A DNA stretch of 64,000 nt from a virus. The position numbers and the translations under genes are program-made. The stretch is from positions 32,001 through 96,000 of the IMG/VR virus record IMGVR_UViG_3300036770_001413; one strand, 5' to 3'. The notes under the pieces were generated by a model. It saw only the letters and a list, made by a program, of their open reading frames with translations. It searched no databases and was not told where the DNA came from. Below, in pieces: positions 11,785 through 61,691 of the stretch; positions within the stretch are counted from its first letter, which is position 1, and the number at the start of each line of letters is the position of its first letter.

Positions 11785-13656
11785 TTATACGTTTTGGATT
11801 ACGATCCAGTCATTATTATATGATTCAACGCCATCTTCTGTCATGGTTGTTGTCGAAGAATCTGTAATTGAGGAACTTTGTTTACGTCTATATAGGTCAT
11901 AATTGGCTGCCGCCTGTGTAGAATTAAATGCAGTCTCATATAGGGCTATATATTGATATAGGGCTGAGACTGATCCATATACAGAATAATTAAATCTAAT
12001 ATCATTTGATACCGCCGACCCAAATACTATGAGGACGTGGTGTAATTGTCCTGCCCTAAATATATTTGAGACATTTGTCTGTGAGGTTTTATTTACCCCA
12101 TTTACATATATTGCTGAGATATTGGTTTTTGATACCGCCCCCGAATTGTGCCAAGATATATTTGAAGCGGCATAGCCATTTGTGGCAGTTGTAGAAATTA
12201 GCCCACTATCAGTTAAAGTGGCGGGGGTGTAGAAAAATTCTAAAGTCTGAACTCCCTTTGTCGTAGTAATTTCAAATCCAGAATCAACTACTGTCCTTAA
12301 TCCATTTCTACTATTTCTTGAAAGGATATCATATGGGAGTTTGCCCAAAGTAATTCTATAATCCGATATTCCAGCATCTTCTTCAAGTGTTGTCATATAG
12401 CTATTTCCATTATAGGCATATCTGGTTTGATTATTATAGAAAAGCATATCTAGGTTAAACAGCCTAGGAATATATCTTGTTGTATCTGTAGAGGTAAATA
12501 TAATTCTCAAATATATTGTTCCTGCCGACGAAAAACTATTTAATGTATATCCTGGTATCTGTTGTCCATTAATACAATTGTTATAGGTTACTCCATCTAT
12601 GCTTGCCTGAACAGTAATTCCATTGTCGCCATGCCACTCAATTTTAGACGAATCAAATGTGGCGGAAGAAGGGATAGAAATAAAATCATTTATAGTAACA
12701 GTACTAGATGCTGCAGAATCCGTTTGAGTAATTTCAAGACAATCTAAAGTAAGGTTATGTGTCAAGCCAGTTGTAACTAATTCGTCCCATCCTTTGCTAT
12801 AAGGATATTGGAATTTATATAATGAGGACATTTCATCATCATACATTTCAAACAATTCTCCATTTGCTGGATCTACTATTTGAATAGCTGGCAAAGGTTG
12901 TCCTTGTGCAAAATGATATGCAATTTGATTTTGAGATAAGCCGTATCTATATATAGCTACGCTATTTATTAAAAATACATTTGAGCTGTCAGGAGTAGGC
13001 CCAGTAATTAGATTTAAATTAGTATTTGTAAACTCAAAATTATTTAAGCTTTTTGTAGCTGCCAATTGTCCATCTATATAAATTGATGCAGAGTTAACTG
13101 AATAAACGGAGGCTACATGAAAGGATTTATTTGTAGAGGGCAATGTATATTCTACAGAATCTGTATCTAGTTTAAATACTATATTTCCTTTTTGATAAAA
13201 TACTCCTACGTCTTCCGCCGAATCTCCTACTAAAGGAATTTCATCAGTTGAAGAAATTTGAGGGTGGAACCAGAACTCTATTGTAAAATCATTATCCGAT
13301 GATGACGCTGTTCCAAATTGGCTAGTTGTTGCAGTAGCAGTATAGTCATTGTTAATATTATATATAATTGAGTTGGTATTTGTTATATTGGTTGCTCTAC
13401 TGTTTCCCGCCACAAGTGGTATTAAATCTGGGGCGGGATCTCCAATATAATTCCCATCATTTTCACATCCTGAATGATCATAAGCAACATCTCCATATAT
13501 ATTTGCATATGAAGATATGTTATCTAATACATCTTGGTATGTTGCAAATTGTGCCAAAAAAGCAGTAAAGTTATCTACTAGATCGACTGTTGTTAGATCG
13601 TCTAATGGATAATATGCTATAGGATAATCATATAGCACTGCTGCTTTATATGACAT
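11785..13656 (-). CDS. Virion protein with LamG/ConA-like domains
   Basis: PIAYYPLDD, DFTIEFWF, HVASVY...IYIDG and VAIYRYGLS motifs. Confidence 0.75.
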   Translation of the reverse strand: MSYKAAVLYDYPIAYYPLDDLTTVDLVDNFTAFLAQFATYQDVLDNISSYANIYGDVAYDHSGCENDGNYIGDPAPDLIPLVAGNSRATNITNTNSIIYNINNDYTATATTSQFGTASSSDNDFTIEFWFHPQISSTDEIPLVGDSAEDVGVFYQKGNIVFKLDTDSVEYTLPSTNKSFHVASVYSVNSASIYIDGQLAATKSLNNFEFTNTNLNLITGPTPDSSNVFLINSVAIYRYGLSQNQIAYHFAQGQPLPAIQIVDPANGELFEMYDDEMSSLYKFQYPYSKGWDELVTTGLTHNLTLDCLEITQTDSAASSTVTINDFISIPSSATFDSSKIEWHGDNGITVQASIDGVTYNNCINGQQIPGYTLNSFSSAGTIYLRIIFTSTDTTRYIPRLFNLDMLFYNNQTRYAYNGNSYMTTLEEDAGISDYRITLGKLPYDILSRNSRNGLRTVVDSGFEITTTKGVQTLEFFYTPATLTDSGLISTTATNGYAASNISWHNSGAVSKTNISAIYVNGVNKTSQTNVSNIFRAGQLHHVLIVFGSAVSNDIRFNYSVYGSVSALYQYIALYETAFNSTQAAANYDLYRRKQSSSITDSSTTTMTEDGVESYNNDWIVIQNV

Positions 13657-46667: not shown

Positions 46668-47255
46668 ATGGAGAATATAAAAGAAAAGCTGAGCGATGTT
46701 GCTCATAGCTGGTCCGTTATAGGAATGATAACATTGTTTCTATTCGGAGTCCAGCCTGAAACAATGACGCCAGCACAAGCTTTATCTTCTGAAGTGCAAG
46801 TACAGCATTTAACTGTTACGCCTAAAGAAGAAAAGCTACAAGCAAAACAACTGAAGAAAGAAACGCTGGAAAAATTCAGCAACACTGTGTACAAACCTTC
46901 AGATATGCTTACAGACAAAGAGTTGCTGCAACTTCTCAAGTCTATAGGATTTGAAGGACAAGCCCTTAAAATGGCTTGGGGTATTGCCAAAGCGGAGTCC
47001 AATGGACGCCCTATGGCTTACAACGGAAACAGGAATACTGGAGACAGTTCCTACGGAATTTTTCAGATCAATATGCTAGGTAACCTTGGTGATGATCGCA
47101 AAGAGAAATTCGACCTGAGATCAAACGTATTATTGTTCGATCCAGTAATTAACGCAGAGATAACGTATTATATGACTAGAGGCGGAGTAGATTGGTCATC
47201 CTGGCCAAATTCTATTAGTAAAGCTAAGAAGTTGATAAATCAATTTCCAAAGTAG
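46668..47255 (+). CDS. Secreted lysozyme-like / lytic transglycosylase
   Basis: Hydrophobic N-terminus with AQA; IAKAESNG...SYGIFQIN...DPVINA motifs. Confidence 0.82.
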   Translation: MENIKEKLSDVAHSWSVIGMITLFLFGVQPETMTPAQALSSEVQVQHLTVTPKEEKLQAKQLKKETLEKFSNTVYKPSDMLTDKELLQLLKSIGFEGQALKMAWGIAKAESNGRPMAYNGNRNTGDSSYGIFQINMLGNLGDDRKEKFDLRSNVLLFDPVINAEITYYMTRGGVDWSSWPNSISKAKKLINQFPK

Positions 47256-47267
47256 TTAGGAGATAAA

Positions 47268-47474
47268 TTGAGGATACAGATTGTGTCCAAATATTTAACC
47301 CTTGCAGAAGAGGGCCTTGTTGCAAAAATGGATTGTCCATTATGCCAAGGCCTTCTAATGCCTAATCAAGATAATAATGATAAAATTTACCTATACTGCC
47401 TTTCTTGTGAATACAGGAATGAAATAGGATTGGATCAATATGACAGAATGGAAAAAGCCATCTCAGGAAAGTGA
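47268..47474 (+). CDS. Small zinc-ribbon protein
   Basis: CPLC...CLSC. Confidence 0.65.
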   Translation: MRIQIVSKYLTLAEEGLVAKMDCPLCQGLLMPNQDNNDKIYLYCLSCEYRNEIGLDQYDRMEKAISGK

Positions 47475-47540
47475 GAGCGGCGAGATAGAAGAAATAGACA
47501 ATATGGGTCGAGAGAAATTTTGGGAAGATATAGGTAGGCC

Positions 47541-47747
47541 ATGAGCGAAGAAGAAACAAAACAAGACTTATCCGAAAATTTGGATATGGTCAACTATATT
47601 ATGCTTCATAGAATATATGACGTCATGACTATTATTGCCAGTAAATTAGTAGGGGCGGAAGAAGTAGATAAGATGATTAAATATCATAATGAGGGATATT
47701 TATTAGGCCCCGCCCCATCTTATACCCCACAAGAAGAAAATGAATAA
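47541..47747 (+). CDS. Hypothetical protein
   Basis: ORF in operon. Confidence 0.6.
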   Translation: MSEEETKQDLSENLDMVNYIMLHRIYDVMTIIASKLVGAEEVDKMIKYHNEGYLLGPAPSYTPQEENE

Positions 47748-48018
47748 ATTATATATCGATCAAATTACTCGGTATATGAATAATGCTAAATTAAAATATC
47801 AAAATTATTATGATGACACGGCTATGGCAACTGGAGCCCTGGAGTGGATTACAGCATACCTGGAAAAATTGCTAGGAAATTGCCAGAACGTCTCAGAGGG
47901 CAAATGTGATACTTGGTGGCGGCATGAAGATTGCAATTCTCTAATGGCCATTCTAGCCGATTTAACAGGGGATGAGAAATATACAATAAAACCCATGAAA
48001 GCTAATTCCTGGGATTAA
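47740..48018 (+). CDS. Hypothetical protein
   Basis: ORF in operon. Confidence 0.55.
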   Translation: MNKLYIDQITRYMNNAKLKYQNYYDDTAMATGALEWITAYLEKLLGNCQNVSEGKCDTWWRHEDCNSLMAILADLTGDEKYTIKPMKANSWD

Positions 48019-48061
48019 AAAGTAGTTGACTTAAAAAATATAATATGTGACAATTAGATCT

Positions 48062-48150
48062 GTATGGGTCGTAGCATCCCACATGTTCCCCATACTTACG
48101 CTTCGGCGTAGCAAAGCCCAATTGGATCCGCCTCCGATTGGGTTTTGTCC
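48062..48150 (+). ncRNA. Candidate structured small RNA
   Basis: Three consecutive hairpins including a C(UUCG)G loop, downstream of TTGACT-N17-GACAAT. Confidence 0.45.
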
Positions 48151-48239
48151 TTTATATAGTGCATTGCGTCGAAATTGCAAAAAATTGAAAGTGCGGCGGA
48201 AGAAGAGAACCATTACCCATTTAACGGTATAATATCTAT

Positions 48240-48524
48240 ATGATCAGAACTAAAAATCTTTCATTAGACAATACTGCCAAAGAATTAACATTTTCTGATG
48301 AAGTAGATTCTCATTACAGCATAATAATAACTAATACCAGTTCGAACAAACATGCTCTGGTAGGAGATATCAATGTGTCTACGACACACTATGGTCTCCG
48401 AGTTGAGCATGATGGTCCACCAGTAATACTGGAGAATATGTCTTTTAAAGATAGACTATATGGAATATCTGAAGATCCTAATACGGCAACTAGTGTTGCT
48501 ATTATGGTTATAGAGAGGAATTAG
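48240..48524 (+). CDS. Hypothetical protein (probably leaderless)
   Basis: TATAAT 6 nt before ATG. Confidence 0.65.
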   Translation: MIRTKNLSLDNTAKELTFSDEVDSHYSIIITNTSSNKHALVGDINVSTTHYGLRVEHDGPPVILENMSFKDRLYGISEDPNTATSVAIMVIERN

Positions 48525-48551
48525 TTTTTTTAATTCCCGCCCCAAAATATG

Positions 48552-48624
48552 CTGGATCACTAGGATTCGAACCTAGGACCTAGAAGTTAACAGCTTCCCG
48601 CTCTGCCTGCTGAGCTATGATCCA
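48552..48624 (-). tRNA. tRNA-Asn (GTT)
   Basis: TGGATCA/TGATCCA acceptor stem, AGCTCAGCAGGCAGAGC D arm, GGAAG-CTGTTAA-CTTCT anticodon arm, GGTTCGAATCC T arm; CCA not encoded. Confidence 0.95.
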
Positions 48625-48637
48625 ATATTACAGTCGA

Positions 48638-48919
48638 CTAAGATATTTTCTTCTGTTTTCTAAAATGTGTTCTCTCTCTATGACAATTTGAGCAAACTAT
48701 TTCGCATTTAGCTATTTCTTCATCTATCTTTTTTCTGCTGAGAGTTGGAACTAATTCCATTACGTTCTTATGCTTCCGCCCCCGAACATGATCAAAATCC
48801 ATAACGTAGTATGGATAATAAGATCCACAATCGGAACAGGGAGAAGATTCCTTTAGGTTTCGCAGATACTTATAAAGTTCCGCTTTCCTTTTAGCAATTG
48901 AAACCTTCTCGGATTTCAT
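48638..48919 (-). CDS. HNH endonuclease-like protein
   Basis: CSDCG...FDHVRG...CEIVCSNCHRERT. Confidence 0.85.
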   Translation of the reverse strand: MKSEKVSIAKRKAELYKYLRNLKESSPCSDCGSYYPYYVMDFDHVRGRKHKNVMELVPTLSRKKIDEEIAKCEIVCSNCHRERTHFRKQKKIS

Positions 48920-48941
48920 ATGCCATTATTCTATCATGTGT

Positions 48942-48957
48942 TGTTTCACATGAAACA
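48942..48957. promoter_or_regulatory. parS-like palindrome
   Basis: TGTTTCACATGAAACA, 15/16 to the parS consensus TGTTTCACGTGAAACA. Confidence 0.65.
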
Positions 48958-48965
48958 TCAGTTGA

Positions 48966-49142
48966 CTATTTTTTTACTCCATTATAAATAGGAACTGAGT
49001 CCATTAATCTGACCTTGCGGGTTGTGACATATCCGCCTTTATCGTCTAATTGCATTCTGGCGGATTCTTCATTTTCCGCCAAAATTTGAACGATCATTTC
49101 GACCTTATAGCTAAAGCAAACTGTATCTTCAATTTTATCCAT
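48966..49142 (-). CDS. Hypothetical protein (58 aa, probably leaderless)
   Basis: MDKIEDTVCFSYKVEMIVQILAENEESAR...; TGCTATACT 7 nt upstream. Confidence 0.6.
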   Translation of the reverse strand: MDKIEDTVCFSYKVEMIVQILAENEESARMQLDDKGGYVTTRKVRLMDSVPIYNGVKK

Positions 49143-49275
49143 AAGGTTAAGTATAGCATTTATTATTCTAGTTGACTATAAATTAGGATTTCTAAAATGT
49201 TAATATATTTTTAATTTGTATGATGCAGGGTATTTAGATGTCCGATTTGTCCAAATAGAGCGACCATATGTGATA

Positions 49276-49291
49276 TGTTTCACATGAAACT
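49276..49291. promoter_or_regulatory. parS-like palindrome
   Basis: TGTTTCACATGAAACT, 14/16 to consensus; same 15-nt core as the 48942 site. Confidence 0.6.
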
Positions 49292-49399
49292 TGTGTGATT
49301 CACATCACCAATGTCCGATTTGCTCACATTTGTCTGGTTGAATATGTCAGTGGGGGGGTGTAGTATTTAATTATTAGATAAACGAAAGGAGTCAATAAA

Positions 49400-49591
49400 A
49401 TGACTACACTAAAATATGAATATACTGTAAAGAATTTTACCTGTGATGAGTGTGGAGAATTCTCCGATGAATTATCCAATATCACTACTGATATATCAGA
49501 TACCACTATTACCGCCCTATGCTGTGATACTGAGTATTGGGTCTATGACCTAAATCAGCTAGGTTATCAGGTTGAGGAGGTTATCCGCTAA
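49400..49591 (+). CDS. Small acidic Cys-containing early protein
   Basis: CDEC...CC; promoter and RBS present. Confidence 0.7.
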   Translation: MTTLKYEYTVKNFTCDECGEFSDELSNITTDISDTTITALCCDTEYWVYDLNQLGYQVEEVIR

Positions 49592-49701
49592 TGATAGACT
49601 CACTAACTAGAATTGACTGTAATGAGTGTAATGGTCAGGGTCTTATATTCTGGGGCAATGACTCAGACTACGATGTTGAACCTTGCGAGTGTGTGGCGTA
49701 A
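49591..49701 (+). CDS. 36-aa zinc-finger-like peptide
   Basis: CNECNGQG...YDVEPCEC; paralog of 51056..51217. Confidence 0.6.
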   Translation: MIDSLTRIDCNECNGQGLIFWGNDSDYDVEPCECVA

Positions 49702-49778
49702 ATCACACCAGACACGCCCTAGATAGGCTTGAAAATGTCAGACCTATCTGATAGCCTTACGGCATAACAATTAAATAA

Positions 49779-49834
49779 GAGAGTATGAGCCTAGCAAATA
49801 AACCGAAAGGGTGAGCCTAGCAAATAAGACTCTC
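49779..49834 (+). repeat. 16-bp direct repeat inside a stem in a 5' leader
   Basis: TGAGCCTAGCAAATAA at 49786 and 49812; enclosed by GAGAGT/ACTCTC and separated by CC-GAAA-GG. Confidence 0.8.
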
Positions 49835-49856
49835 ACTAACGAAAGGAAATAAATAA

Positions 49857-50021
49857 ATGAAAATCACTTACTCAATATGGCAGGGTAGCCTAATCAAGGG
49901 CTCACGATTCACCGCCTCAAATATGAAAGAAATCGCTAAGGTTATAGATGACCTAAACTCAACAGGTGCTAAACCTAAGTTTGAGTATTTCATCTCTCAA
50001 GTAGAACAGGATAACAAGTAA
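49857..50021 (+). CDS. Hypothetical early protein (54 aa)
   Basis: MKITYSIWQG...; AACGAAAGGAA RBS. Confidence 0.7.
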   Translation: MKITYSIWQGSLIKGSRFTASNMKEIAKVIDDLNSTGAKPKFEYFISQVEQDNK

Positions 50022-50200
50022 TGACTTACGCTATGACTTGGGAGCGAGATTATCGCTCCTACAAATACGAAACTATTCAAGATAATTATCTTGATGATGA
50101 CTTAGATGATGAACCGACAGACTTTACCGAAGTTGCCTTATCAGAGATTTCTCTTGATGAATTAGACGATGACGAATTAACAGAATTGGGTTTAATATAA
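50021..50200 (+). CDS. Highly acidic 59-aa protein
   Basis: 20 of 59 residues are D/E; translationally coupled. Confidence 0.65.
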   Translation: MTYAMTWERDYRSYKYETIQDNYLDDDLDDEPTDFTEVALSEISLDELDDDELTELGLI

Positions 50201-50347
50201 ATGGATACATATAACAGAATACTAAAGGCTCAACAGGAGCGTAGAGAATTACAGGCTCTAAAGGATAAGCAAGTAGTAGAGGCTATGTTTGCTAATCATA
50301 TGCGCCCTCTAAATAATAAGCACTTACTAAAGGAAATAGAGAGATGA
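50201..50347 (+). CDS. Hypothetical early protein (48 aa)
   Basis: MDTYNRILKAQQERREL...; abuts the previous stop. Confidence 0.55.
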   Translation: MDTYNRILKAQQERRELQALKDKQVVEAMFANHMRPLNNKHLLKEIER

Positions 50348-50651
50348 TAAATCTTATTCATACCGCCGCCCTATTATCTTTGTGTATAGGGCTAGGCTGG
50401 GCGTTTGTGATGTTTATCACACGCTAAATCGGCGTGTCAGCTTGACAAGATCGGCGGGCCCCCGCACAGTTGTGCGGGCGATTTATCCCTTATGAGCATT
50501 ATGTCCGATTCCCCGAAATCCTGCGACACGCCGAGAATTTTGTGAATTTTCTCACACGACTGAGCGTCTCATATTTTGGAATTACTCGCTAGTAAGTAGA
50601 GAAATGTCGGTGGGCTTTGGTAAAATATCAGCATAAAGAAAGGAAAACTAA

Positions 50652-50864
50652 ATGAAAACTTATTCAATAGTAGATTTGCTAGTTGACCAATACTACGCCC
50701 CTACTTCTCTCCGCCGTAGATTTAATGGTGGAATTATCAATTACGCAGAAAAGCGTGAAAATGTTTATTTATCCGAAGGCTACGAGGCTTTCGCTATTCG
50801 CTACCGCCCAACAGGGTCAATTCAAGACCAATGGGCAACAGTAGCCGTAAAAGTCGCCGACTAA
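50652..50864 (+). CDS. Hypothetical early protein
   Basis: Promoter and RBS present. Confidence 0.75.
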   Translation: MKTYSIVDLLVDQYYAPTSLRRRFNGGIINYAEKRENVYLSEGYEAFAIRYRPTGSIQDQWATVAVKVAD

Positions 50865-50917
50865 ATGTCGGTGGCTTCCACTATAATCAGATTTATCAAA
50901 ACGAAAGGAAAACTAAA

Positions 50918-51055
50918 ATGGATCTAAAAGAATTTAGAGATTTTATTATTGCCCAGCGCTTGGCAGAAAATAAAGAAAAGCGCAACGCTAATCTCACCGC
51001 AATTTTGTCGGTGGCTAATGCTACAATTACCGAAACAACAGGAAAGGAAAACTAA
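50918..51055 (+). CDS. Hypothetical early protein (45 aa)
   Basis: Start MDLKEFRD after the RBS; contains the next promoter. Confidence 0.65.
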   Translation: MDLKEFRDFIIAQRLAENKEKRNANLTAILSVANATITETTGKEN

Positions 51056-51217
51056 ATGAGTAAAATGAAACGACTACTAGAGGAAATTTCTAATTGCGAT
51101 ACTTGCTTTGGAAATGGCTATCTATACTACGGAGATGAGGAAACTTTTGATGTTGAGCCTTGTCTATGTAATCCAGAAAGTCTTGAACACCAACTATTCG
51201 GAAAAGAGGCTGACTAA
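51056..51217 (+). CDS. 53-aa zinc-finger-like protein
   Basis: CDTCFGNG...FDVEPCLC. Confidence 0.7.
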   Translation: MSKMKRLLEEISNCDTCFGNGYLYYGDEETFDVEPCLCNPESLEHQLFGKEAD

Positions 51218-51417
51218 TGTATAAACTATTTACTTACTATGACGGAAAATTAGAATTCACCGCTAATTTCTCAGACGCTCTTGAAGCGTTTGAGGCTTTC
51301 GCAAGATGTAAAGATGTAGGTTTTGCTATTGAAAACGCAACTTATAATCTAGAAATGCCAACAGGCAAAATGTATACAAAAAACTTTGACAGAATAGGTT
51401 TGGTATCTCACCGATGA
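51217..51417 (+). CDS. Hypothetical early protein
   Basis: Translationally coupled ORF. Confidence 0.65.
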   Translation: MYKLFTYYDGKLEFTANFSDALEAFEAFARCKDVGFAIENATYNLEMPTGKMYTKNFDRIGLVSHR

Positions 51418-51605
51418 TGACTAGAAAAGACTATGTCGCTACCGCAGAAATTCTAAACTATGTTAGCGATAAAACCCACCCCGCTATTTTTTCTAAAATG
51501 GTAAATGATTTCGCAGAAATGTTTGCGAAAGATAATCCTAAATTTGATGTAAAAAGATTTCACGAAGCGAGCAATTATCGTGTTCCAAAATTTACAGCGA
51601 ATTAA
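51414..51605 (+). CDS. Hypothetical early protein
   Basis: MTRKDYVATAEIL...FAKDNPKFDVKRF; coupled ORF. Confidence 0.7.
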   Translation: MMTRKDYVATAEILNYVSDKTHPAIFSKMVNDFAEMFAKDNPKFDVKRFHEASNYRVPKFTAN

Positions 51606-51705
51606 AAAAGTTTTGGATTTGCGCCGTAGTAATGCGGCGCAACCAATGCGAAATAAAAAAATTTATTCACGAAAGCGAAAGCATAAAAATAAATTTGACA
51701 ATTAG
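51580..51705 (+). CDS. Small basic protein (41 aa)
   Basis: GTG start; LRRSNAAQP...NKKIYSRKRKH. Confidence 0.5.
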   Translation: MFQNLQRIKKVLDLRRSNAAQPMRNKKIYSRKRKHKNKFDN

Positions 51706-51822
51706 TTGAAATGGCCCGCAAATATGTGTGGGGGCCTGATGTGATTTACGACACACACGGCGTGTCCCCGAAATTTTGTCAGTGTAATCTGTTATACTAG
51801 CGGCATAACGAAAGGAAAACTA

Positions 51823-51969
51823 ATGATAAAAGTTGCTTGTTTATATTATGAGATTTGTGGCACTGCTACCTATTTTGTTGATGAGGCGGAATATGAGGTC
51901 TATGGCGATGATTGGGCATGCGCCGAATGCTTAGATACTGTTGCCGAATTCGCTGTCGGTATGTGGTGA
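51823..51969 (+). CDS. Small acidic Cys-rich protein (48 aa)
   Basis: Promoter and RBS present; CLYYEIC...CAEC. Confidence 0.65.
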   Translation: MIKVACLYYEICGTATYFVDEAEYEVYGDDWACAECLDTVAEFAVGMW

Positions 51970-51982
51970 TAGAATGTCCACT

Positions 51983-52702
51983 ATGAAATTGAAACGCTCT
52001 AACGATAGGAAGGTTGCTAATGCCGTATCAAAAAATGGAAAGACCCCAACAATTGCCAACACTTTTGGATTGCCTGCTGGAAAAGATTACTCCTGCCCTG
52101 GTGCCACTAGTATTTGTGAAAGTGTTTGCTATGCAGGAAAACTTGAAAAAGTCTATAAGGGAGTAAAGGCTGTGCTCCTACACAATTGGGAGCTCCTACG
52201 CAATGCAGATGAGCCTACTATGGTTGACTTAATTGAGGATATGATTGCAGACTTTAGAAAAGATTGCGATAAGCGCAATGCAGAAAAGTTATTCCGTATT
52301 CACTGGGACGGCGATTTCTTTAGCGATACCTATGCACGGGCGTGGCAATATGTAATTACGCAAAATGCCGATATTCAATTTTGGGTTTATACTCGTGTAA
52401 AGTCTGCAGCCCTTATTCTTAAAGATATTTCTAATCTATCACTTTACTATTCTACCGATGATGAGAATAAAGAAATTGGGCACGAATTAAAGCGTGAGAA
52501 TGGTATTCGATTGGCTTATCTCGGAAAGACTTTTGCAGTCACCGAAAATGTAATGAAAGAGTTAACTGGTAAGCCTGGTGCTAAATGCCCTGAAAATGCT
52601 AAGAAAATTCCACTTATCTCTACTAATGGTTCCGCCTGCGTATCGTGTGGTCTGTGTGTTTATGGTAAAGCAGACATAAGATTTTCTGCGAGTAAAAAAT
52701 GA
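51983..52702 (+). CDS. Gp88-like Cys-cluster protein (probably leaderless)
   Basis: SCPGATSICESVCYA, FRIHWDGDFF, FWVYTR and CVSCGLC motifs; ATG 7 nt after TAGAAT with no RBS. Confidence 0.7.
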   Translation: MKLKRSNDRKVANAVSKNGKTPTIANTFGLPAGKDYSCPGATSICESVCYAGKLEKVYKGVKAVLLHNWELLRNADEPTMVDLIEDMIADFRKDCDKRNAEKLFRIHWDGDFFSDTYARAWQYVITQNADIQFWVYTRVKSAALILKDISNLSLYYSTDDENKEIGHELKRENGIRLAYLGKTFAVTENVMKELTGKPGAKCPENAKKIPLISTNGSACVSCGLCVYGKADIRFSASKK

Positions 52703-52998
52703 TGAATGCGCCATATGCAATACACGAATTGCAGCAATTAATTTGGGAGGATTCTATGGACCACTTGGCCGAATGCACGTGTAGTCTCTGTATAACACTG
52801 GATGTAATTAATGAATATGTCGGGGGCCCCGCTTGATCCCCCGCCCGCAAATGTGTGGGGGCCCAAGCATAGTTACGAGTCAAGTTAAAAACGCCCTGGA
52901 TTTTGTGATTTTTATCACAAAAAATAATTAGACCTAATCTGATAAATGTCGGTGGACTACGCTATAATTGCGACTTAACCAAACGAAAGGAAATACAA

Positions 52999-53259
52999 AT
53001 GGAAACTGCAATTGATACAACTAATTGGGTTAAATACCCTTTTACTGTTGATGGAATTGACTTTGTGTCTTTAATAGACCCTAAAGGAAGTTTTTACCCA
53101 CAACTAGAGGCTATGCCTACTCAACTGCTTAATGCTCTTAATGAGAGCGCAATTAGAGAGTTTATTGGCTCACCCGCCAATTTTTCTTTAGATGAATTAC
53201 AAGGGGAATTAGATGAAATTAACCTTGGCTATTCGCAGGCTCTAATTACCTTAGCCTAA
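52999..53259 (+). CDS. Hypothetical early protein
   Basis: Promoter and RBS present. Confidence 0.75.
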   Translation: METAIDTTNWVKYPFTVDGIDFVSLIDPKGSFYPQLEAMPTQLLNALNESAIREFIGSPANFSLDELQGELDEINLGYSQALITLA

Positions 53260-53314
53260 AAATGTCGGTGGGTAGGTGTATAATCTACCCACTAACAACA
53301 ACGAAAGGAAACAA

Positions 53315-53587
53315 ATGTTATCAACCGCAACTGCCTTAATTAAGGCAACCGAGGAAGCAATTTTTGATGAGGAGTGTATGTCTTTTGCTCAACAATTCTG
53401 CCACCATAAAGATGAATTAACCCCTGAATACTTTGCTAAGTCTATTTATCTTTATTCAACTATGATAGCAAGTCTAGCAATAGATAAGGCTATGAAAGTT
53501 TTATTAACTCAGGAGCAAGTAGAGGAATTATGCTCTGCTATTGCTGAATTAGAACAAATGGAAAATGAGGTGCTAAATGGGAAGTAA
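53315..53587 (+). CDS. Hypothetical early protein
   Basis: Start MLSTATA after the RBS. Confidence 0.75.
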   Translation: MLSTATALIKATEEAIFDEECMSFAQQFCHHKDELTPEYFAKSIYLYSTMIASLAIDKAMKVLLTQEQVEELCSAIAELEQMENEVLNGK

Positions 53588-53843
53588 TTTTGCTCATGAC
53601 TTAGCTGATTATGACTTAGGATTAGACTTATCTACCGCTATCAAGATACACCTAACTTCTAATCACTACCCGCCAATTCCCGTTGAAATGGTAGAGCCGT
53701 GTATAGATGCTATTGACGCATACCATAATGGCGATACGGATCAAGAAATACAAATGCCAAAAGACATAACCTATAAAGGCAGAAATACCGCCCCCGCTTG
53801 GGCTATCATAGAGCAACACCACCTAGAGGCTTGGTGCGAATAA
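53577..53843 (+). CDS. Hypothetical early protein
   Basis: HLTSNHYPP...IIEQHHLEAW. Confidence 0.75.
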   Translation: MGSNFAHDLADYDLGLDLSTAIKIHLTSNHYPPIPVEMVEPCIDAIDAYHNGDTDQEIQMPKDITYKGRNTAPAWAIIEQHHLEAWCE

Positions 53844-53895
53844 ATGTCGGTGGGCTATGATAGGATAGCCTTCCAAACTAACGAAAGGAAAACAA

Positions 53896-54051
53896 ATGGG
53901 AACAACCCTAGAAATCGGACAGACCTTCACGACAGAAAAATCTGGCGTAGTAGGAACAATTAAAGCAGTAGATAACCACCCTTCAGGCGTGGCTCGTATT
54001 CTGCTTGATGTAAATGGCAAAGAACGCTGGACTAGCGTATCTGCTAAGTAA
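53896..54051 (+). CDS. Small beta-rich protein (51 aa)
   Basis: MGTTLEIGQTFTTEKSGVVGTI...RWTSV; promoter and RBS present. Confidence 0.7.
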   Translation: MGTTLEIGQTFTTEKSGVVGTIKAVDNHPSGVARILLDVNGKERWTSVSAK

Positions 54052-54123
54052 TCAAATGGCAGGGCTCACAATGTCGGTGGGCTCTGCTACAATTCTCGCT
54101 CAACAACTAACGAAAGGAAAATA

Positions 54124-54546
54124 ATGGCTAGAAACGGAAAATCTATTCAAGTCAAGATTGCTACAACTAAAGTAATCAAGGCACTTGAAACTAAATTGGC
54201 AGACCTGAAAAAAACTCAGGCTACCCAAAAAACCAATGAGGAGAAATACTCAAAGGCGCAAGAGAAATGGGCTAAGGAAGTTGCTAAACTTGCTCTCGCT
54301 CAAATCGCAAAGGCAGAAAACCTACGAGCAAATGTTCGCTACAATGGCGAAATAAATGTAGATTTTGATTTACCTAAAGGCTCTATTGAATTACCAAAAG
54401 AACCTGAAAAGGATTTTGAAACCTATAACGATTGGCAGTATCGGGAAATGTTTGAGGAGATAGAGAACGCTATCCGTATTCTCAAGATGACCGATGAGGA
54501 AGTAGTAAATACTTCTACCTATAACGCTATCGCTCGTTATCTCTAA
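54124..54546 (+). CDS. Hypothetical early protein
   Basis: Promoter and RBS; followed by hairpin 54552-54577. Confidence 0.8.
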   Translation: MARNGKSIQVKIATTKVIKALETKLADLKKTQATQKTNEEKYSKAQEKWAKEVAKLALAQIAKAENLRANVRYNGEINVDFDLPKGSIELPKEPEKDFETYNDWQYREMFEEIENAIRILKMTDEEVVNTSTYNAIARYL

Positions 54547-54615
54547 TAGTATGGGGGCTAGACAAAATCTAGCCCCCTATGCTAAAATACTTATCCCTAC
54601 TAACAAAGGAAAGAA

Positions 54616-54825
54616 ATGCTAGATGTAGAAATCTACGAAATGGATTATTCAGTATCCCCTGGCGGTGTGAATTGCTGGGAAATGACTATTGGTAATAAAT
54701 GCTATTCAGACTTCAAAACTGCTGGACAGGCTTTAGACCACTTGCTAATTATGTATCCTGACTCAGGATTTAATTTAAGTGTTGTATCACTTGCTAATTA
54801 TTTCAAGGAGGATACTTATGTATAA
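54616..54825 (+). CDS. Hypothetical protein
   Basis: TGCTAAAAT promoter and AAAGGA RBS. Confidence 0.65.
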   Translation: MLDVEIYEMDYSVSPGGVNCWEMTIGNKCYSDFKTAGQALDHLLIMYPDSGFNLSVVSLANYFKEDTYV

Positions 54826-55075
54826 TCGCTATCGTGTAGAAATATATGACGAAAACAAATTAAATGATTTAACTCTATACTTTTCTGACGGAGTAAATAG
54901 AGAACACTTATCGGAATTAGTTTTTGCTAATATCCGCAGATTTCAAGGCAAGGTTAAAGCCTATGTCTTTGATAAGAAAAAGAAAGAAAAAGTTCTTGCT
55001 ATCTTTTATCCAGAAGAAATAGTTAAGAAATATAATAACAATAGACTAACTAAAGAAGAAATTGGTTTAGTTTAA
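54818..55075 (+). CDS. Hypothetical protein
   Basis: GGAGG RBS before MYNRYRVEIYD. Confidence 0.65.
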   Translation: MYNRYRVEIYDENKLNDLTLYFSDGVNREHLSELVFANIRRFQGKVKAYVFDKKKKEKVLAIFYPEEIVKKYNNNRLTKEEIGLV

Positions 55076-55080
55076 AAGCT

Positions 55081-55135
55081 TGGGGCGGGTTTGTGTCGTG
55101 TAATCATCTAGATCCCCGCCCCATTTCCTTTTTTT
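55081..55135 (+). terminator. Intrinsic terminator
   Basis: TGGGGCGGG...CCCGCCCCA followed by a T-tract. Confidence 0.7.
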
Positions 55136-55154
55136 GGCCCGCATATGTGAGGGG

Positions 55155-55184
55155 TTTTCCACAGGTTTAAGAGAGTTATCCACA
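55155..55184 (+). promoter_or_regulatory. Two DnaA boxes
   Basis: TTTTCCACA (55155) and TTATCCACA (55176), 21 bp apart. Confidence 0.5.
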
Positions 55185-55294
55185 ATCCCCGAAATTTGTG
55201 AGATTGATCACAGATCAAAGATTCCCCTATCTTGTCAAATGTCAGACCCACAGTGTATAATAACTAATTCAACTAACTATGAAAGGAAAAAACT

Positions 55295-56302
55295 ATGGCT
55301 CATAACCTAGAAACAAATGGCAATGAAGTTGCCTTTGCCCTACGTGGCACACCTGCTTGGCATAATCTTGCCAATCGCATTTTCTTACAAGATGAAAATG
55401 TATCAACTCAAATGATGTTAGATGAGGCTAAACTTTCCAATTGGAACGTCCGCCTTTCTCCTGTCGTTGAGCATATCCCTGCTGATTGGAATGATAATTC
55501 TAATTCTCAATATGTGATTCGCACGAATCCATTTAATCAAGAAACCGATGTTCTCTCTGTTGTCGGTTCTCGCTATCAAGTTGTCCAGAATGAAGATTTA
55601 TTTGCTTTCGCAGATAATATCCTAGACGGCGATTCTCGTTGCCAATGGGAATCTGGCGGTTCAATCAAGAATGGTAAAGTAGTCTTTGGCTCTCTTACTG
55701 TTCCACGTGAAATGGTGTTAGACCCACAAGGCGCTAATGATAAGACAAAGTTATATCTAATTGTCTTTACATCTCACGATGGCTCTGTTGCTGTTCAGGC
55801 AGCGATTACACCTGTTCGTGTTGTATGCCAAAATACTTTGAATCTTGCTATGCGTAATGCTAAGCAATCATTCAAGATTCGTCATACTCAATCTGCTGAC
55901 GGCAAGATAGCAATTGCTCGTGAAACTCTTGGTCTTACTCTTGGATACTTTGATGAGTTTGAGAAAGAAGTTCAATCTCTATTCGCTTCCGAGATTAACG
56001 ATAAGCAATTCTATGACATCGTTAAGGCTATTTATCCAAAGCCTGCCGATGACGCTTCTAAAATTGCTATCACAAAGTGGGATAACAAGATGATAACTCT
56101 TGCTGACCTTTACTTTAATTCGCCTACTAATGCGAATATCAAAGGCACAAAGTGGGGTGCTTTCAATGCGCTAACTGAGCGCCTTGATTATTTCCGCCCT
56201 ACTCGTGGAAAGTCAGATTCAAAGTGGATTTCCGCTTCAGGGTTTGACCCAATTATTACCGCCGAGAAGAATAAAATTCTTCAGATTGTAAAATCGGCGT
56301 AA
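55295..56302 (+). CDS. DUF932 / TIGR03299-type phage-plasmid protein
   Basis: MAHNLE, PAWHNL, YQVVQNED, SHDGS, TPVRVVCQNTL, RHT and GTKWGAFNALTE motifs. Confidence 0.88.
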   Translation: MAHNLETNGNEVAFALRGTPAWHNLANRIFLQDENVSTQMMLDEAKLSNWNVRLSPVVEHIPADWNDNSNSQYVIRTNPFNQETDVLSVVGSRYQVVQNEDLFAFADNILDGDSRCQWESGGSIKNGKVVFGSLTVPREMVLDPQGANDKTKLYLIVFTSHDGSVAVQAAITPVRVVCQNTLNLAMRNAKQSFKIRHTQSADGKIAIARETLGLTLGYFDEFEKEVQSLFASEINDKQFYDIVKAIYPKPADDASKIAITKWDNKMITLADLYFNSPTNANIKGTKWGAFNALTERLDYFRPTRGKSDSKWISASGFDPIITAEKNKILQIVKSA

Positions 56303-56308
56303 TCTATA

Positions 56309-56328
56309 AGGGCCCCGCAAGGGGCCCT
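56309..56328 (+). terminator. GNRA-capped hairpin after the DUF932 gene
   Basis: AGGGCCCC-GCAA-GGGGCCCT. Confidence 0.6.
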
Positions 56329-56470
56329 GCAATTCCCCCAGGATCTTGCAGCTAATCGCCCGCAAGCCTGAAATCCAAAAAAGATTGTTACGACAAGGGG
56401 ACGGAACCCCTGGATTTTGTCAGTCGGGTCCGCTATAATACTCCCCATGACAACAAACGAAAGGAATACA

Positions 56471-56926
56471 ATGGAACACGTATCAATAGATGCATATAAC
56501 CCACATGCGTTTATTACTCTCCGTAAAATTAATCCAGAGAGCAATGACAGTATGTTTATTATGCACAAAGCAACTGAACTCGAGGAAACTCTAGATAGAA
56601 TTAAGAATCTAGAAAAACTAGTCGAGATTACTCAGAACCAGATTGGCCAAGTTCTTGGCAATATGACTGCAGATGGCTGGTATAGTTCGAGCACAGATAA
56701 ATCAGAGGTATTGTCAGACCTATGTGATATCTTTGACCATGAACCAAAACAAGAAATCAGAATCACAGGAACTATGACATTCGAACTACGCTACGATTGT
56801 CCACTTGACGAAGTCGAAGATTTTGACGCTCGTTATTTTGCACAGGACAACTTGTCTGTTGACTCATATAACGGCAATGTTATTGTCGAATCATTCGATA
56901 TCGAAGATGCGGATGTGGATTGGTAA
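56471..56926 (+). CDS. Acidic hypothetical early protein
   Basis: Start MEHVSID after the RBS. Confidence 0.75.
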   Translation: MEHVSIDAYNPHAFITLRKINPESNDSMFIMHKATELEETLDRIKNLEKLVEITQNQIGQVLGNMTADGWYSSSTDKSEVLSDLCDIFDHEPKQEIRITGTMTFELRYDCPLDEVEDFDARYFAQDNLSVDSYNGNVIVESFDIEDADVDW

Positions 56927-57135
56927 TGTATTATCAATTACAAGCACCTGATAGGCTATCTCTTGAGATGGCCTATTGGGAAGCACAAATTGCTGGATTA
57001 GACCCAACTTGGATTGGCGGTAATGTCATGGACATTGGCACAGGACAAATTGAAAAGGTTTCAGCCTTGATTTCTAAGCATAACTTAGATATACTAGTTG
57101 AAACAGATTATCAGCCAACAGGTTACAGGAGGTAG
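56920..57135 (+). CDS. Hypothetical protein
   Basis: Coupled ORF. Confidence 0.6.
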   Translation: MVMYYQLQAPDRLSLEMAYWEAQIAGLDPTWIGGNVMDIGTGQIEKVSALISKHNLDILVETDYQPTGYRR

Positions 57136-57136
57136 C

Positions 57137-57295
57137 ATGGACTACAAAGAAGGCTTTCAAGATGGCGTTCAATTTACTCGTGAGGTAGTTATCGCCAATA
57201 TTCGTAAATGGGCGGAATCCCATGACGAAGGACATGTATTAGATTGGGTAGCAGATAGAATAGAATTTGGGACATTAGATAATGACCTCGGATGA
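57137..57295 (+). CDS. Hypothetical protein
   Basis: AGGAGG RBS before MDYKEGFQDG. Confidence 0.6.
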   Translation: MDYKEGFQDGVQFTREVVIANIRKWAESHDEGHVLDWVADRIEFGTLDNDLG

Positions 57296-57497
57296 TATAA
57301 CTAAACCAATCTATTGTGACCGTTGCCCTACCTCCCGTGCTGCTTATTTAGTTAAAATACTAAATGGGGAATTAGCTTTTTGTAACCACCATTACAGAAG
57401 GCACAAAGAGGCCCTTGACAAGATGGCCTATGAAATTATAGAATTAAACCGTAAAGAAAAAACACCTCAACTAGAAAAGGAAGAAATAAATGGGTAA
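57282..57497 (+). CDS. Small zinc-binding protein
   Basis: CDRC...LAFCNHH. Confidence 0.7.
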   Translation: MTSDDITKPIYCDRCPTSRAAYLVKILNGELAFCNHHYRRHKEALDKMAYEIIELNRKEKTPQLEKEEING

Positions 57498-57897
57498 TAG
57501 AGCGAACTTCGTATTCGTAGACGGAGCAGGCGATTCAATCGTGCTGTATGGGCACTGGGCTGGACATCAAATGCTAGGCAAACTAGCGGACGCTGTCATT
57601 GCCGCCAGGCCTCGATGGAACGATGAATCATATGCAACACGTATCGCAATCAGTCAACTAATTGGAGACCAATGGAACATGGAAACTGGATGGGGTCTGC
57701 AGATTAATTCAATTAGCGATAATGAGCATAAGATTGCCGTCATCAATTGGAAAGAGCGGACGTTCAGTCTTCACGCAGAGGACGACCATCGCAACTTAGA
57801 CAACAAGGTTCTAGGAATGAAGAACGAGGCTATATTCACTATGGACCTCGAAGCATTCTGTGAGAAATACGCATTGGATGGATTGTTAGCCGTTTAA
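57490..57897 (+). CDS. Hypothetical protein
   Basis: MGNRAN...LYGHWAG...RWNDESYATRI; AAGGA RBS. Confidence 0.75.
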   Translation: MGNRANFVFVDGAGDSIVLYGHWAGHQMLGKLADAVIAARPRWNDESYATRIAISQLIGDQWNMETGWGLQINSISDNEHKIAVINWKERTFSLHAEDDHRNLDNKVLGMKNEAIFTMDLEAFCEKYALDGLLAV

Positions 57898-57915
57898 ATA
57901 TGGTATAATAATTAT

Positions 57916-58050
57916 CCATGGCAAGGTGCCGCTATTAGCGATATCCGCAAGTGGCTAAGTAATGCAGCTTTTACTTAATTCCTTTCGTTGCAGCTAGCAG
58001 CCTTGTTTGTTTATTGATCTAGATCCCCCAGAAATGGGGGATTTATTTTT
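57916..58050 (+). ncRNA. Candidate sRNA antisense to the early-gene RBS
   Basis: TGGTATAAT promoter at 57901, several hairpins, ATTCCTTTCGTTG at 57978-57990, terminator at 58021-58050; no meaningful ORF. Confidence 0.6.
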
Positions 58051-58181
58051 GCCCGCAGAACCTGAGAGTAAAATTAGCTCTTTACGTAATCTAATGTATT
58101 TTTCCCAGAATTGGGGTATATTGCCAAATGTCAGTGGGGTAATATATAATTGGACCATTCAACCAACGAAAGGAATATACT

Positions 58182-58949
58182 ATGCCTAACTGGGTATATA
58201 ATGGTCTTACAATTGAAGGCAATCCTGAATTAGTAAATGACCTTGTAAAACAACTTAATAAGCCATTTGTCATGTTACATGATAATTGGAATCCTACATC
58301 TGGAAAAATGGAAGTAGTTCAAACTACATATCCTAATCCTATATTTGCATTCTATAATATCTATAATCATAGACAAGCAGGTATATCTGATAAGGACTAT
58401 CTTGCACAACCGCCACGAGATATGCCCATTGAAGAACAAATGCTATTTCAGACAAATGATTGGTATTCATTTAATGTTCGTGAATGGGGCACAAAGTGGG
58501 ATGTTGCTGTATCTGAAAATAAAGAATATGCAGATACATATATAGAGGGTCCTACTGAGAATGGAGAGAATCTAGTAGTTTATTATAATTTTAATACTGC
58601 ATGGTCTCCGCCTATGCCTGCCATTTCTAAACTATCTGCACAATATCCTAGTTTATTGTTTACTATGTCCTATGAGGAAGAAACAGGTTGGGGTGGGGAA
58701 TGCGAGTTCCTCCGTGGAGAAATGATTTCTGAATCTGATTATAGTAATAAATGCCGTGATTGTGAATCAGAAAATACATTAGATTATTGTGAGAATGATT
58801 GTGGCGAGATATGTTCATCTTGTAATTGGATGGGTGAGGCTGATTTAGAGGCGGTAGCAGAATGTCAGACCCATAAGATATACTTGGATTCCGAGCATGT
58901 CCCTGATTATAGAAAGGAAGCACTAGAAAATGCAACACGGAGCATTTGA
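58182..58949 (+). CDS. DUF1281/YubB ferredoxin-like domain protein
   Basis: MPNWVYNGL, WYSFNVREWGTKWD, FNTAWSPP and YEEE motifs; Cys-rich tail. Confidence 0.8.
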   Translation: MPNWVYNGLTIEGNPELVNDLVKQLNKPFVMLHDNWNPTSGKMEVVQTTYPNPIFAFYNIYNHRQAGISDKDYLAQPPRDMPIEEQMLFQTNDWYSFNVREWGTKWDVAVSENKEYADTYIEGPTENGENLVVYYNFNTAWSPPMPAISKLSAQYPSLLFTMSYEEETGWGGECEFLRGEMISESDYSNKCRDCESENTLDYCENDCGEICSSCNWMGEADLEAVAECQTHKIYLDSEHVPDYRKEALENATRSI

Positions 58950-60285
58950 TGATGTCGATTTAATGGTAAAAGACGCAATATTCTCAGATATTGCTGACCA
59001 ATTACTAGAAGACTGGATTAATAACTTATTAGATGAGGGTCAATATTTTGCAGATTTGCAAGTTGCCTCTATGTCTGGTGACCCATTTTTACAGGATAAA
59101 TTTAATAAGTTCTATAATTTAACTCCTGAACACAATGATTACTTTGAGGTGGAATAATGGAATCTGAATATATTAATAGGAAGACACAGTTAACTACTTA
59201 TCTTCAATTACATATAATGTCTTTGAATGAGGACTTAGTTCAGATATCTAAGCATATGGATTCCTTGGACCCCGCCTCAAAAGATTATGCTGAATTAGAT
59301 ATTGAGCATACCTATACAAGCGGCCAAGTTTCTGCTACAATGCACATCCTTGAATATGTAGAGGAGATAATGTGAACACATTAGAACTGGAACCACACCT
59401 GCAGAAGCAGGTTGACGCTGGGTCCTCTGGGACTGATATCTTGCACGGGCATTTAAAGGTGCTCATGTTGGACGCAGAGCGTGAATTGGAGGAAGCACAA
59501 CGCATAGAGGATGAAACAGAAGAAGCAATGGATTCCATGGAGCGGAAGTATTGGGAAGGCCAATTAGACGCTCTTACATATGTCTACCAAATGACATATG
59601 CATTAGCATTTGCAATCGATGAAAGGACAAAGAAGAATGGATAGAGTTCATATAGAATCATTAGATGTGCTCAAAGCAAAAGAGCAATTAGATCTACAGG
59701 AGGCAACACGTAGAGATGATGTTTATAATCAACTAAATGAGATTATAGATAAATTAGAGAAGATTCCTGTCTTCCCGTCATTAATGTGGGTATGGTCCTT
59801 TGACGTTATCAGAGAGATATTTGAGAACTATCAGATGAAGGACCTTGCTGTAAATGATTATGTTGATGAGGCTGTGCCTGAAGGCATAACATTAAAACAA
59901 ATCTTTGATAAGTTCTGGGATGATGTAGACGGGTTCGGTCTTAGCATGGATTCGGGCGGGGACATCATAGAAGAGACAATCAGAGATTGGATGAGAGATA
60001 ACAATTTCCTAGTATCCCTGGAGGAGGAGTCAGATGAATAAATATAAAGTATTTGGAGATAAGGTAGTTGACTACTATATTAATGTAGAAGCAACTTCTG
60101 CGGAGGAGGCATGGGACATTGCCTCCAATGCAGCAACGACTGATTGGATCCAAATGGAAACAGATAACACCATTCAGGTTCATTTTGTAGATAATGAGCT
60201 TGAAGAAGATACATCTAATCTATTAGAAGATGGATATCCGAATATAAATAACGATATTATCATATCGGACAAATCGGACATTTAG
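58930..60285 (+). CDS. Operon of five small acidic hypothetical proteins
   Basis: Coupled ORFs 58930-59157, 59157-59375, 59372-59644, 59637-60041 and 60034-60285. Confidence 0.65.
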
Positions 60286-60388
60286 TACTAAGCTGTGTGC
60301 AACGGGCACAAAGCTACGGTTACGGGGTATTTACAAATTCCCTGGAATCTGATAAAATATAACACTATCATAGAAAGGATAGACAACA

Positions 60389-60535
60389 ATGGCAACAAAG
60401 CGTGAATATCTAGTATCAAAGGGAATTACTGTTGGCCGCCGTGGCCGATTCTCTGCAGCTGCTAAGCAGGCTTTGTCTGAGGCGGAAAAGAATGGAATTA
60501 AGTTCACCGCTGAAGTCAAACAAGCAAAGAACTAA
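60389..60535 (+). CDS. Lsr2-like DNA-binding-domain protein (48 aa)
   Basis: KREYLVSKGITVGRRGRFSAAAKQAL; AGAAAGGA RBS; TGATAAAAT promoter; below the track cut-off. Confidence 0.65.
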   Translation: MATKREYLVSKGITVGRRGRFSAAAKQALSEAEKNGIKFTAEVKQAKN

Positions 60536-60549
60536 ATAGATCAGATCCA

Positions 60550-60575
60550 AAGGGGCTGGCGCAAGTCAGCCCCTT
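60550..60575 (+). terminator. Terminator hairpin
   Basis: AAGGGGCTGGC-GCAA-GTCAGCCCCTT. Confidence 0.7.
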
Positions 60576-60609
60576 ATGATATAATCGAGGGTTCAAAGAG
60601 AGGCGGAAC

Positions 60610-60918
60610 ATGAGAAGAAGAACCAAAGTAGATAAAGTAATAGATAGTTTAGAAGAAATCCTAAACGACCATCATTTTCACCCAGCGTTATTTGCTAATA
60701 TCATTATCACAAGTTATCCACCATATACCCAAAGTAAATTATTAGAACTAATTAAGTATATTGAGGAATATCATTACCAAGAACTGGCTCTCGATGAGAA
60801 AACAAAAACGGGGGCTTACCGAAATAATAACCCAGTACAAATTAAATCAGATAACAGTTGGGTACATGAAGAATTCCATGGACAACCTGCTCGTATCAAT
60901 ACACAAGCAGTAATATAA
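60610..60918 (+). CDS. Hypothetical protein
   Basis: TGATATAAT promoter and GAGG RBS. Confidence 0.6.
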   Translation: MRRRTKVDKVIDSLEEILNDHHFHPALFANIIITSYPPYTQSKLLELIKYIEEYHYQELALDEKTKTGAYRNNNPVQIKSDNSWVHEEFHGQPARINTQAVI

Positions 60919-61691
60919 ACTAATCTAATATAATACACCTAGGGGTGAATTGGACATATATGTCCGATTTGCCCCTTTTGTGTTAACTATTAGCGGGCAA
61001 AAATTCCCCTTTACGAGAGCATATAAAAAATCCCAGAAAATTTGATCATTATCTAAAAGAATATAACAAAATGTTATAATAATATAACTAAATAGATATA
61101 ATATTGATCAGAATCTGGGTAAATTCTGGAGCATATTTCTGGCTAAATATAGCCATATTTATGGCTACGAGCCAAAATTCTCCTTTACGAGGCATTGACA
61201 AAAATCCTGGAAAATGCTGCATATGGATCCTATTGACATTACGACATGAATATAGTAGTGCTCAATTACACATATATCTATTTAATTATTATACAATAAC
61301 ATTTCGTTATGAATCTATAACCATTTTACTCCACAATGCTCCACAATACTCCACTTTAAAGGCCTTAGAAAGGCCATAGAGAGGAGATAAATTGGAGGGG
61401 GGTAGGAGAAGATAGGAATCTATCTGATCAAATTTCTACAGGAATTGTAGCTACTCTTTATAGATCTTTATAGTATTCCAGATTATATATAGGGTTATAG
61501 CTGAGAATGTTATACCCATACCATAGAACCATATCCATACTATTCTGGCAAAGAGGTCTATTTTGATTCCCCCGCCCCTTTATGCCAGTCACCTATATTT
61601 GGATCCATCATATTTGGATTAACTGGTAGTCCAGATGGATATATTATATGTATAACTCCTGGTTGACTAAGATCAATTATCCTATCTTCTG

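Follow-up and report, generated by a model that had tools for sequence, protein, structure and literature searches.

A plus-strand module with repeated box promoters

The DNA analyzed here, called the window, is a 64,000-nucleotide stretch that corresponds to bases 32001-96000 of a 107,545-bp virus record in IMG/VR (IMGVR_UViG_3300036770_001413), and the element under study is an array of promoters of the form TGTCRG-N10-TANNNT, in which a TGTCRG box (R is A or G) lies exactly 10 nt before a −10 hexamer. The array stands in the sole plus-strand gene module of the phage, which contains ∼40 small open reading frames (ORFs) with genes up to position 60918 and is closed by a strong intrinsic terminator; in the ORF map, every other gene lies on the minus strand. 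These minus-strand genes encode virion proteins (portal, protease, capsid, a 2355-aa tape measure, and tail fibres) and proteins of metabolism and replication (class II ribonucleotide reductase, DnaB, primase, a Pol III alpha piece, and RecA). Within the module, the promoters span 49345-60585, a block of small genes of ∼12 kb. The genome has a GC content of ∼39%, and its record carries a terminal repeat of 127 bp. Because this is a common assembler k-mer length, the repeat probably reflects a circular assembly instead of true genome ends.

An exact scan of the window found 16 matches to TGTCRG-N10-TANNNT, all on the plus strand within 9.5 kb (49345-58884), when shuffled sequence predicts 0.92 ± 0.95 and the maximum in any shuffle was 4. 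These same 16 matches were the only ones in the whole genome, in which the reversed pattern used as a control matched once. All 14 sites listed in the original prediction are among them, its count of nine sites that continue with TGG holds, and the sites at 56712 and 58863 are additional. When one mismatch is allowed, a 17th site, AGTCAG-N10-TATAAT, appears at 60564. Two subtypes can be told apart by the bases that follow the box, TGTCRG-TGG and TGTCAG-ACC(C), with the latter present at 49736, 55240, 56712, and 58863.

At 14 of the 16 exact sites, a gene with a strong ribosome-binding site (RBS) and an ATG begins 18-39 nt past the predicted transcription start site (TSS). The site at 49736 has a leader of ∼93 nt, and the one at 56712 is intragenic. 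An RBS shared across the module, ACGAAAGGAA, is found in 9 copies on the plus strand when 0.12 are expected for both strands of the window. Because the block consists of many small genes, each with a promoter and a strong RBS of its own, its layout suggests that it is expressed early.

Promoter anatomy in related lake phages

Relatives were fetched from IMG/VR by means of the DUF932 gene of the module (71-86% aa identity), which yielded 80 loci (1.34 Mb) from a clade of lake phages. In these loci, TGTCRG-N10-TANNNT occurs 1181 times in the forward and 3 times in the reverse orientation, and the reversed-pattern control gave 9 matches. Each of 13 near-complete relatives contains 12-20 matches, in a single block and on a single strand. 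The spacing is fixed to the base (1181 matches with N10, 8 with N9, and none with N11), and the hexamer is TGTCAG in 661 cases and TGTCGG in 240, with each single-mismatch variant present at most 18 times.

In a logo of 830 distinct sites, the consensus is WWW-TGTC-R-G-T-S-S ... T-G-n-TATAAT, and ∼74% of the sites have an extended −10 (TGnTATAAT). The claim that the sites have no obvious −35 element is borne out by this logo, in which the −35 position holds ≤0.1 bit, as it does in a second logo anchored on the −10 and the RBS; a scan for consensus σ70 promoters also found no enrichment (75 found, 66 expected). Anchoring that made no use of the motif, on a −10-like hexamer, an RBS, and a start codon, recovered TGTCRG at −28 to −23 on the module strand and no −35 element, and the same −10 and RBS anchoring applied to the other strand recovered neither a box nor a −35 element. 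Ahead of the DUF932 gene, conservation across 55 distinct relatives is confined to a CRP-type palindrome, the TGTCAG box, the −10, and the start codon. The minus-strand intergenic promoters of the phage contain TTGACA and/or an extended −10 (TGnTATAAT) without the box, so that the box marks a separately regulated class of promoters.

Leaderless mRNAs are common in Actinobacteria, and their start codons can place the TSS. When start codons that open an ORF of at least 40 aa were surveyed by their distance past the −10, 77 were found at 7 nt, 18 at 6 nt, and none at 8-9 nt, and a second, RBS-led class begins at ∼20 nt (about 20-30 nt). Two or more gene families account for the leaderless cases; besides the gp88-like genes, these include a family of 205-224 aa that begins MTNELVSS. 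In the window, the ATG of the gp88-like gene at 51983 lies 7 nt past the −10 TAGAAT, and the Pfam GP88 profile starts at this same ATG; the gene (51983-52702) also matches PHROG 1392. As the start codons peak at 6-7 nt, where those of leaderless mRNAs would be expected, these genes indicate a predicted TSS ∼7 nt after TANNNT.

Based on these sequence comparisons, the sites probably form a distinct class of real promoters with a SigA-type −10, a near-invariant TGTCRG at −28 to −23, and no −35. The individual sites are listed in Table 1 together with the other features of the module.

Table 1. Coordinates of the promoters and associated features of the plus-strand module (window numbering)
Feature	Position	Strand	Remarks
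Sole plus-strand gene module	46668..60976	+	
CRP/GlxR-type palindromes (eight), TGTGA-N6-TCACA, ≤1 mismatch	49269, 49294, 49692, 50406, 50541, 51740, 52904, 55197 (span 49269..55212)		All upstream of box promoters
Promoter 1, TGTCAG-N10-TAGTAT	49345..49366	+	Before gene 49400-49591 (63 aa)
Promoter 2, TGTCAGACC subtype, −10 TAGCCT	49736..49757	+	Before gene 49857-50021
Promoter 3	50605..50626	+	Before gene 50652-50864
Promoter 4	50866..50887	+	Before gene 50918-51055
Promoter 5	51006..51027	+	Before gene 51056-51217
Promoter 6	51777..51798	+	Before gene 51823-51969
Promoter 7	51954..51975	+	Before leaderless GP88-family gene 51983-52702
Promoter 8	52947..52968	+	Before gene 52999-53259
Promoter 9	53263..53284	+	Before gene 53315-53587
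Promoter 10	53845..53866	+	Before gene 53896-54051
Promoter 11	54072..54093	+	Before gene 54124-54546
Promoter 12, TGTCAGACC subtype	55240..55261	+	Before DUF932 gene 55295-56302
Promoter 13	56418..56439	+	Before gene 56447/56471-56926; in-frame ATG 7 nt past −10, second ATG RBS-led
Exact match within gene 56471-56926	56712..56733	+	No start codon behind; function doubtful; same sequence kept in relative G006
Candidate small RNA	57901..58052	+	Own extended −10 TGgTATAAT, no TGTCRG box; terminator hairpin 58020-58045
Promoter 14	58129..58150	+	Before Api92-like (DUF1281_C) gene 58182-58949
Promoter 15, TGTCAGACCCATAAGATATACT	58863..58884	+	Before gene 58930-59157; near-identical in many relatives
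Variant promoter AGTCAG-N10-TATAAT	60564..60585	+	Before gene 60610-60918; AGTCAG variant also in relatives
Strong intrinsic terminator closing the module	60941..60976	+	16-bp stem and T run

Host PafBC and other candidate readers of the box

The in vivo consensus for PafBC is tGTCgg(N10)tA(N3)T, where lower-case letters denote ≤50% conservation in M. smegmatis; the box lies at −23 to −28, the SigA −10 forms the 3′ part, and a −35 is lacking (PMC8635444). PafB reads the GTC triplet, PafC touches σ region 4, and a 12-nt single-stranded DNA (ssDNA) enhances the complex (PMC8635444, PMC11804915). The motif, known as RecA-NDp, reaches beyond mycobacteria to other Actinobacteria (PMC8223512), and a Streptomyces example, as given in primer text of PMC5087735, is TGTCAGTGG-N7-TACGGT, with the same TGG continuation as nine of the window sites.

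Compared by sequence, the phage sites resemble PafBC-dependent promoters in their tGTCgg-type box at −28 to −23, in the exact N10 to a SigA-type TANNNT, in the lack of a −35, in a box that is not palindromic, and in their actinobacterial setting. They differ in that they sit on a phage, with 16-17 of them in a row before small genes of unknown function and not before DNA-repair genes, in that the box never varies at T1 and G6, and in that most have an extended −10 and many a phased CRP-type palindrome.

The phage encodes a WhiB protein (E 5e-12), its portal is 57-59% identical to those of Streptomyces phages of the Stanwilliamsviridae, and the module has homologues of mycobacteriophage L5 gp88. 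By these genes the phage is classed as an actinophage, and PafBC is therefore plausible as the host factor. Among 14 control genomes, only one, Corynebacterium, contained the WhiB family, and the plasmids with genes similar to the phage WhiB were from Streptomyces and Rhodococcus only. GC values of 34-40% across the lake clade suggest a low-GC actinobacterial host, for example a member of the freshwater Nanopelagicales. Cultured phages of Nanopelagicales were considered as a link to this host and set aside, as they are ∼39 kb in size and belong to a different group. The homologues of the phage WhiB found by homology search were all metagenomic, a search of the ESM Atlas returned viral clusters only, and a scan of genome contigs with the phage RecA found only distant RecAs and phage contigs in Bacteroidia or cyanobacterial metagenome-assembled genomes (MAGs). 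Contigs of the clade of up to 110 kb (L095-L097) are binned in public MAGs labelled Bacteroidia and "uncultured cyanobacterium"; because no WhiB genes other than those of the phage are present in those MAGs, these contigs look like binning contaminants.

Given that the box agrees with the published motif in sequence, position, and spacing, host PafBC is the best candidate for the reader of the box, a prediction that we make with moderate confidence. The original prediction of a PafBC-type regulon stands insofar as the box, the N10, the SigA-type −10, and the missing −35 agree with the consensus and the phage is an actinophage. Its second suggestion, a PafBC mimic encoded by the phage outside the window, was not upheld, as profile searches of 14 genomes found no WYL domain in this phage or in its 13 near-complete relatives, and this phage genome contains no σ region 2 (Sigma70_r2).

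In the proposed mechanism, the box would be read by the host RNA polymerase-SigA holoenzyme together with the host activator PafBC. PafBC would sit between σ region 4 and the box and replace recognition of a −35, a mode known as "sigma adaptation." PafBC is switched on by ssDNA. The block would then fire once ssDNA appears in the infected cell, whether from injected or resected ends, the onset of replication, nuclease attack, or DNA damage. We infer PafBC as the reader, ssDNA as its trigger, and an early or host-takeover role for the block.

Several points weigh against this assignment. Most sites combine an extended −10 with a near-consensus TATAAT and could be active without an activator. 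The closest cultured kin of the phage infect Streptomyces, which has RecA-NDp promoters, yet 0-1 sites are present in these phages, which rely on TTGACA boxes. The phage box does not vary at T1 and G6, which are lower case in the M. smegmatis consensus; because the phage box is the more rigid of the two, the reader could differ from mycobacterial PafBC. For a lytic phage, it is hazardous to let an essential block await a damage signal, unless ssDNA arises from the infection itself. In addition, one of several small proteins that are found only in the clade and have no known domain could be a phage-encoded reader.

This last point leads to an alternative that we regard as unlikely, in which a non-WYL protein of the phage reads TGTCRG and recruits or remodels the host SigA polymerase as MotA/AsiA do in T4. 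Such a protein could be a packaged virion component or a product of the minus-strand TTGACA/extended −10 promoters, and the resemblance to the PafBC box would then have arisen by convergence or because a different reader uses a mimic of that site. The T4 middle promoters (a MotA box at −30 and a −10, served by MotA/AsiA "sigma appropriation") are comparable in that a box replaces the −35 and the host primary σ reads the −10. They differ from the array in the sequence and position of the box, and their adaptors are phage-encoded, whereas here none is detectable and the box is the site of a host activator; no phage gene for a σ factor or a box-reading adaptor was found.

A phage reader would fit the distribution of the array, which is restricted to the lake clade and missing from the Streptomyces kin (Muntaha has 1 match and Karimac 0). 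A third relative, G019, a 127-kb phage of 53% GC that was the sole new record when diverse WhiB queries were run against viral contigs, has 0. Muntaha and Karimac, both Stanwilliamsviridae, share with the lake phages a replication and virion core of 30-68% aa identity, WhiB, a 46-aa helix-turn-helix (HTH) protein, and the class II ribonucleotide reductase; their GC content is 49-53% as opposed to 34-40%, most genes of the module are not common to both groups, and their commonest upstream element is TTGACA at −35. The clade also has conserved proteins of its own with no known function (107, 75, 73, 69, and 64 aa among others), and its box is more rigid than the mycobacterial one. WhiB-family proteins bind σ region 4, and the gene for the phage WhiB lies behind a canonical promoter.

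Against a phage reader stands the absence, in the searches made, of a WYL domain, a σ region 2, or a clade-specific DNA-binding domain. The only HTH found is the 46-aa protein of the replication cluster, and the HTH_11 profile gave no convincing match in this search. Both the 46-aa protein and WhiB were rejected as readers because their presence does not track the motif, as each also occurs in three relatives that lack the array. Conserved in the clade outside the block and absent from the array-less relatives are genes for HSP20, an S8-like peptidase, a CHAP lysin, an FmdB-type zinc ribbon, and several tiny proteins of unknown function, and no recognizable DNA-binding domain was found in these clade-specific proteins. 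An unrelated reader would, moreover, have to match by chance both the 6-nt box and the exact 10-nt spacing used in the phylum of the host.

Among the clade-specific genes, that for the small heat-shock protein HSP20 lies at L010:113-532 (−) and that for the FmdB-type zinc-ribbon protein (60 aa) at L012:12244-12426 (−). A further clade-specific protein of 188 aa, at L012:5248-5814 (−), which is G000 100248-100814, shows a weak likeness to Ntn hydrolases of the proteasome/BPH type (Pfam Proteasome, E 0.007, below the cut-off; PDB 5ovs, E 0.11).

It is improbable that the box is read by another host factor, either a different WYL or HTH activator or an alternative σ with a short spacer. Other WYL activators exist in Actinobacteria (for example SiwR; PMC10693628), and the TGG and ACC(C) subtypes could mean two readers. 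On the other side, the −10 has the plain SigA form TATAAT, extended by TG, and the box and spacing are those of the PafBC consensus, with no other published site found to match.

Very improbable, in our estimate, is constitutive firing of the promoters from their extended −10, with a box that does not activate but serves as an operator for a repressor, or as a decoy that soaks up PafBC and blunts the damage response of the host. The frequency of the extended −10 would agree with this, as would its use without the box in minus-strand promoters of the same phage, and 16 sites per genome copy could titrate a factor of low abundance. Both the base-exact spacing to the −10 and the lack of a palindrome in the box, however, are typical features of a promoter element in contact with polymerase and not of an operator, and the sites stand only before genes of one module.

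Possible additional inputs to the block and its possible role in infection

If PafBC reads the box, it may not be the only input from the host. The whole genome contains eight TGTGA-N6-TCACA palindromes, and all eight lie inside the module. In the relatives, the distances of 809 CRP-type boxes from the −10 peak at 42.5, 52.5, 62.5, 72.5, and 83.5 nt, so that by sequence the palindromes recur on the helical face of polymerase in 10-bp steps, as in CRP/GlxR class I-type promoters. Because of this phasing, the CRP-type boxes suggest a second predicted host input that depends on the face of the helix. Another enriched motif, (GTT)ACGACACGCC with a GACAC core, is found ∼25-30 nt 5′ of the box in ∼10% of promoters (at 49736, 51777, and 56418 in the window, and in relatives).

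The block also contains a candidate small RNA, which carries TTCCTTTCGT, the exact complement of the module-shared RBS. Its core and flanks are kept in 38 of the 80 related loci, and no family was found for it in Rfam. By this complementarity, the RNA may shut off translation of the block.

Two further features were observed outside the promoter block. A single tRNA-Asn (GTT) at 48551-48624 on the minus strand separates the two halves of the plus-strand module, and at G000 11169-13162 (outside the window, in L010) ∼2 kb between the Pol III piece and primase hold no convincing ORF and could be an origin or an RNA gene.

Taken together, these elements allow a broader proposal, which we put forward as tentative and rather doubtful in its entirety. 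A globally abundant clade of lake actinophages would cede an island for takeover or counter-defence to sensors of the host, with PafBC (as an ssDNA alarm) and a CRP-type regulator acting jointly at each promoter. Expression of the island would be limited to suitably energised cells in which phage DNA is undergoing unwinding, resection, or attack, and the RBS-complementary phage small RNA would later shut down its translation. As a phage regulon, such a system would be the first to rest on sigma adaptation, and it would parallel, on a phage, the leading-region genes that ssDNA triggers on conjugative plasmids.

The host-takeover module of SPO1 and the pre-early region of T5 are compact blocks of small genes that are set apart, have a strong promoter and an RBS for nearly each gene, and use plain host σA/σ70 promoters. 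The block described here is like them in its compactness, in having a strong promoter and an RBS for nearly every gene, and in its separation from the rest of the genome; it differs in that a second element would tie it to a signal-dependent activator of the host. Our literature search found no paper that reports PafBC-type promoters on a phage. The nearest to it is a 2025 report, cited in PMC12848934, of an effect of PafBC on mycobacteriophage resistance. In the papers on plasmid leading regions that were searched for DUF932, no mention of this family was found.

PafBC promoters have so far been known only as the LexA-independent DNA-damage regulon of the host. If host PafBC does read the array, its hundreds of natural promoter variants would be a resource for dissecting sigma adaptation, and its sequence signature would help to assign uncultured phages to actinobacterial hosts. 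Widespread freshwater phages would then time a 12-kb island by an ssDNA sensor of the host and not by a factor of their own making, a manner of sensing cell entry or nuclease attack that would be new for a virus.

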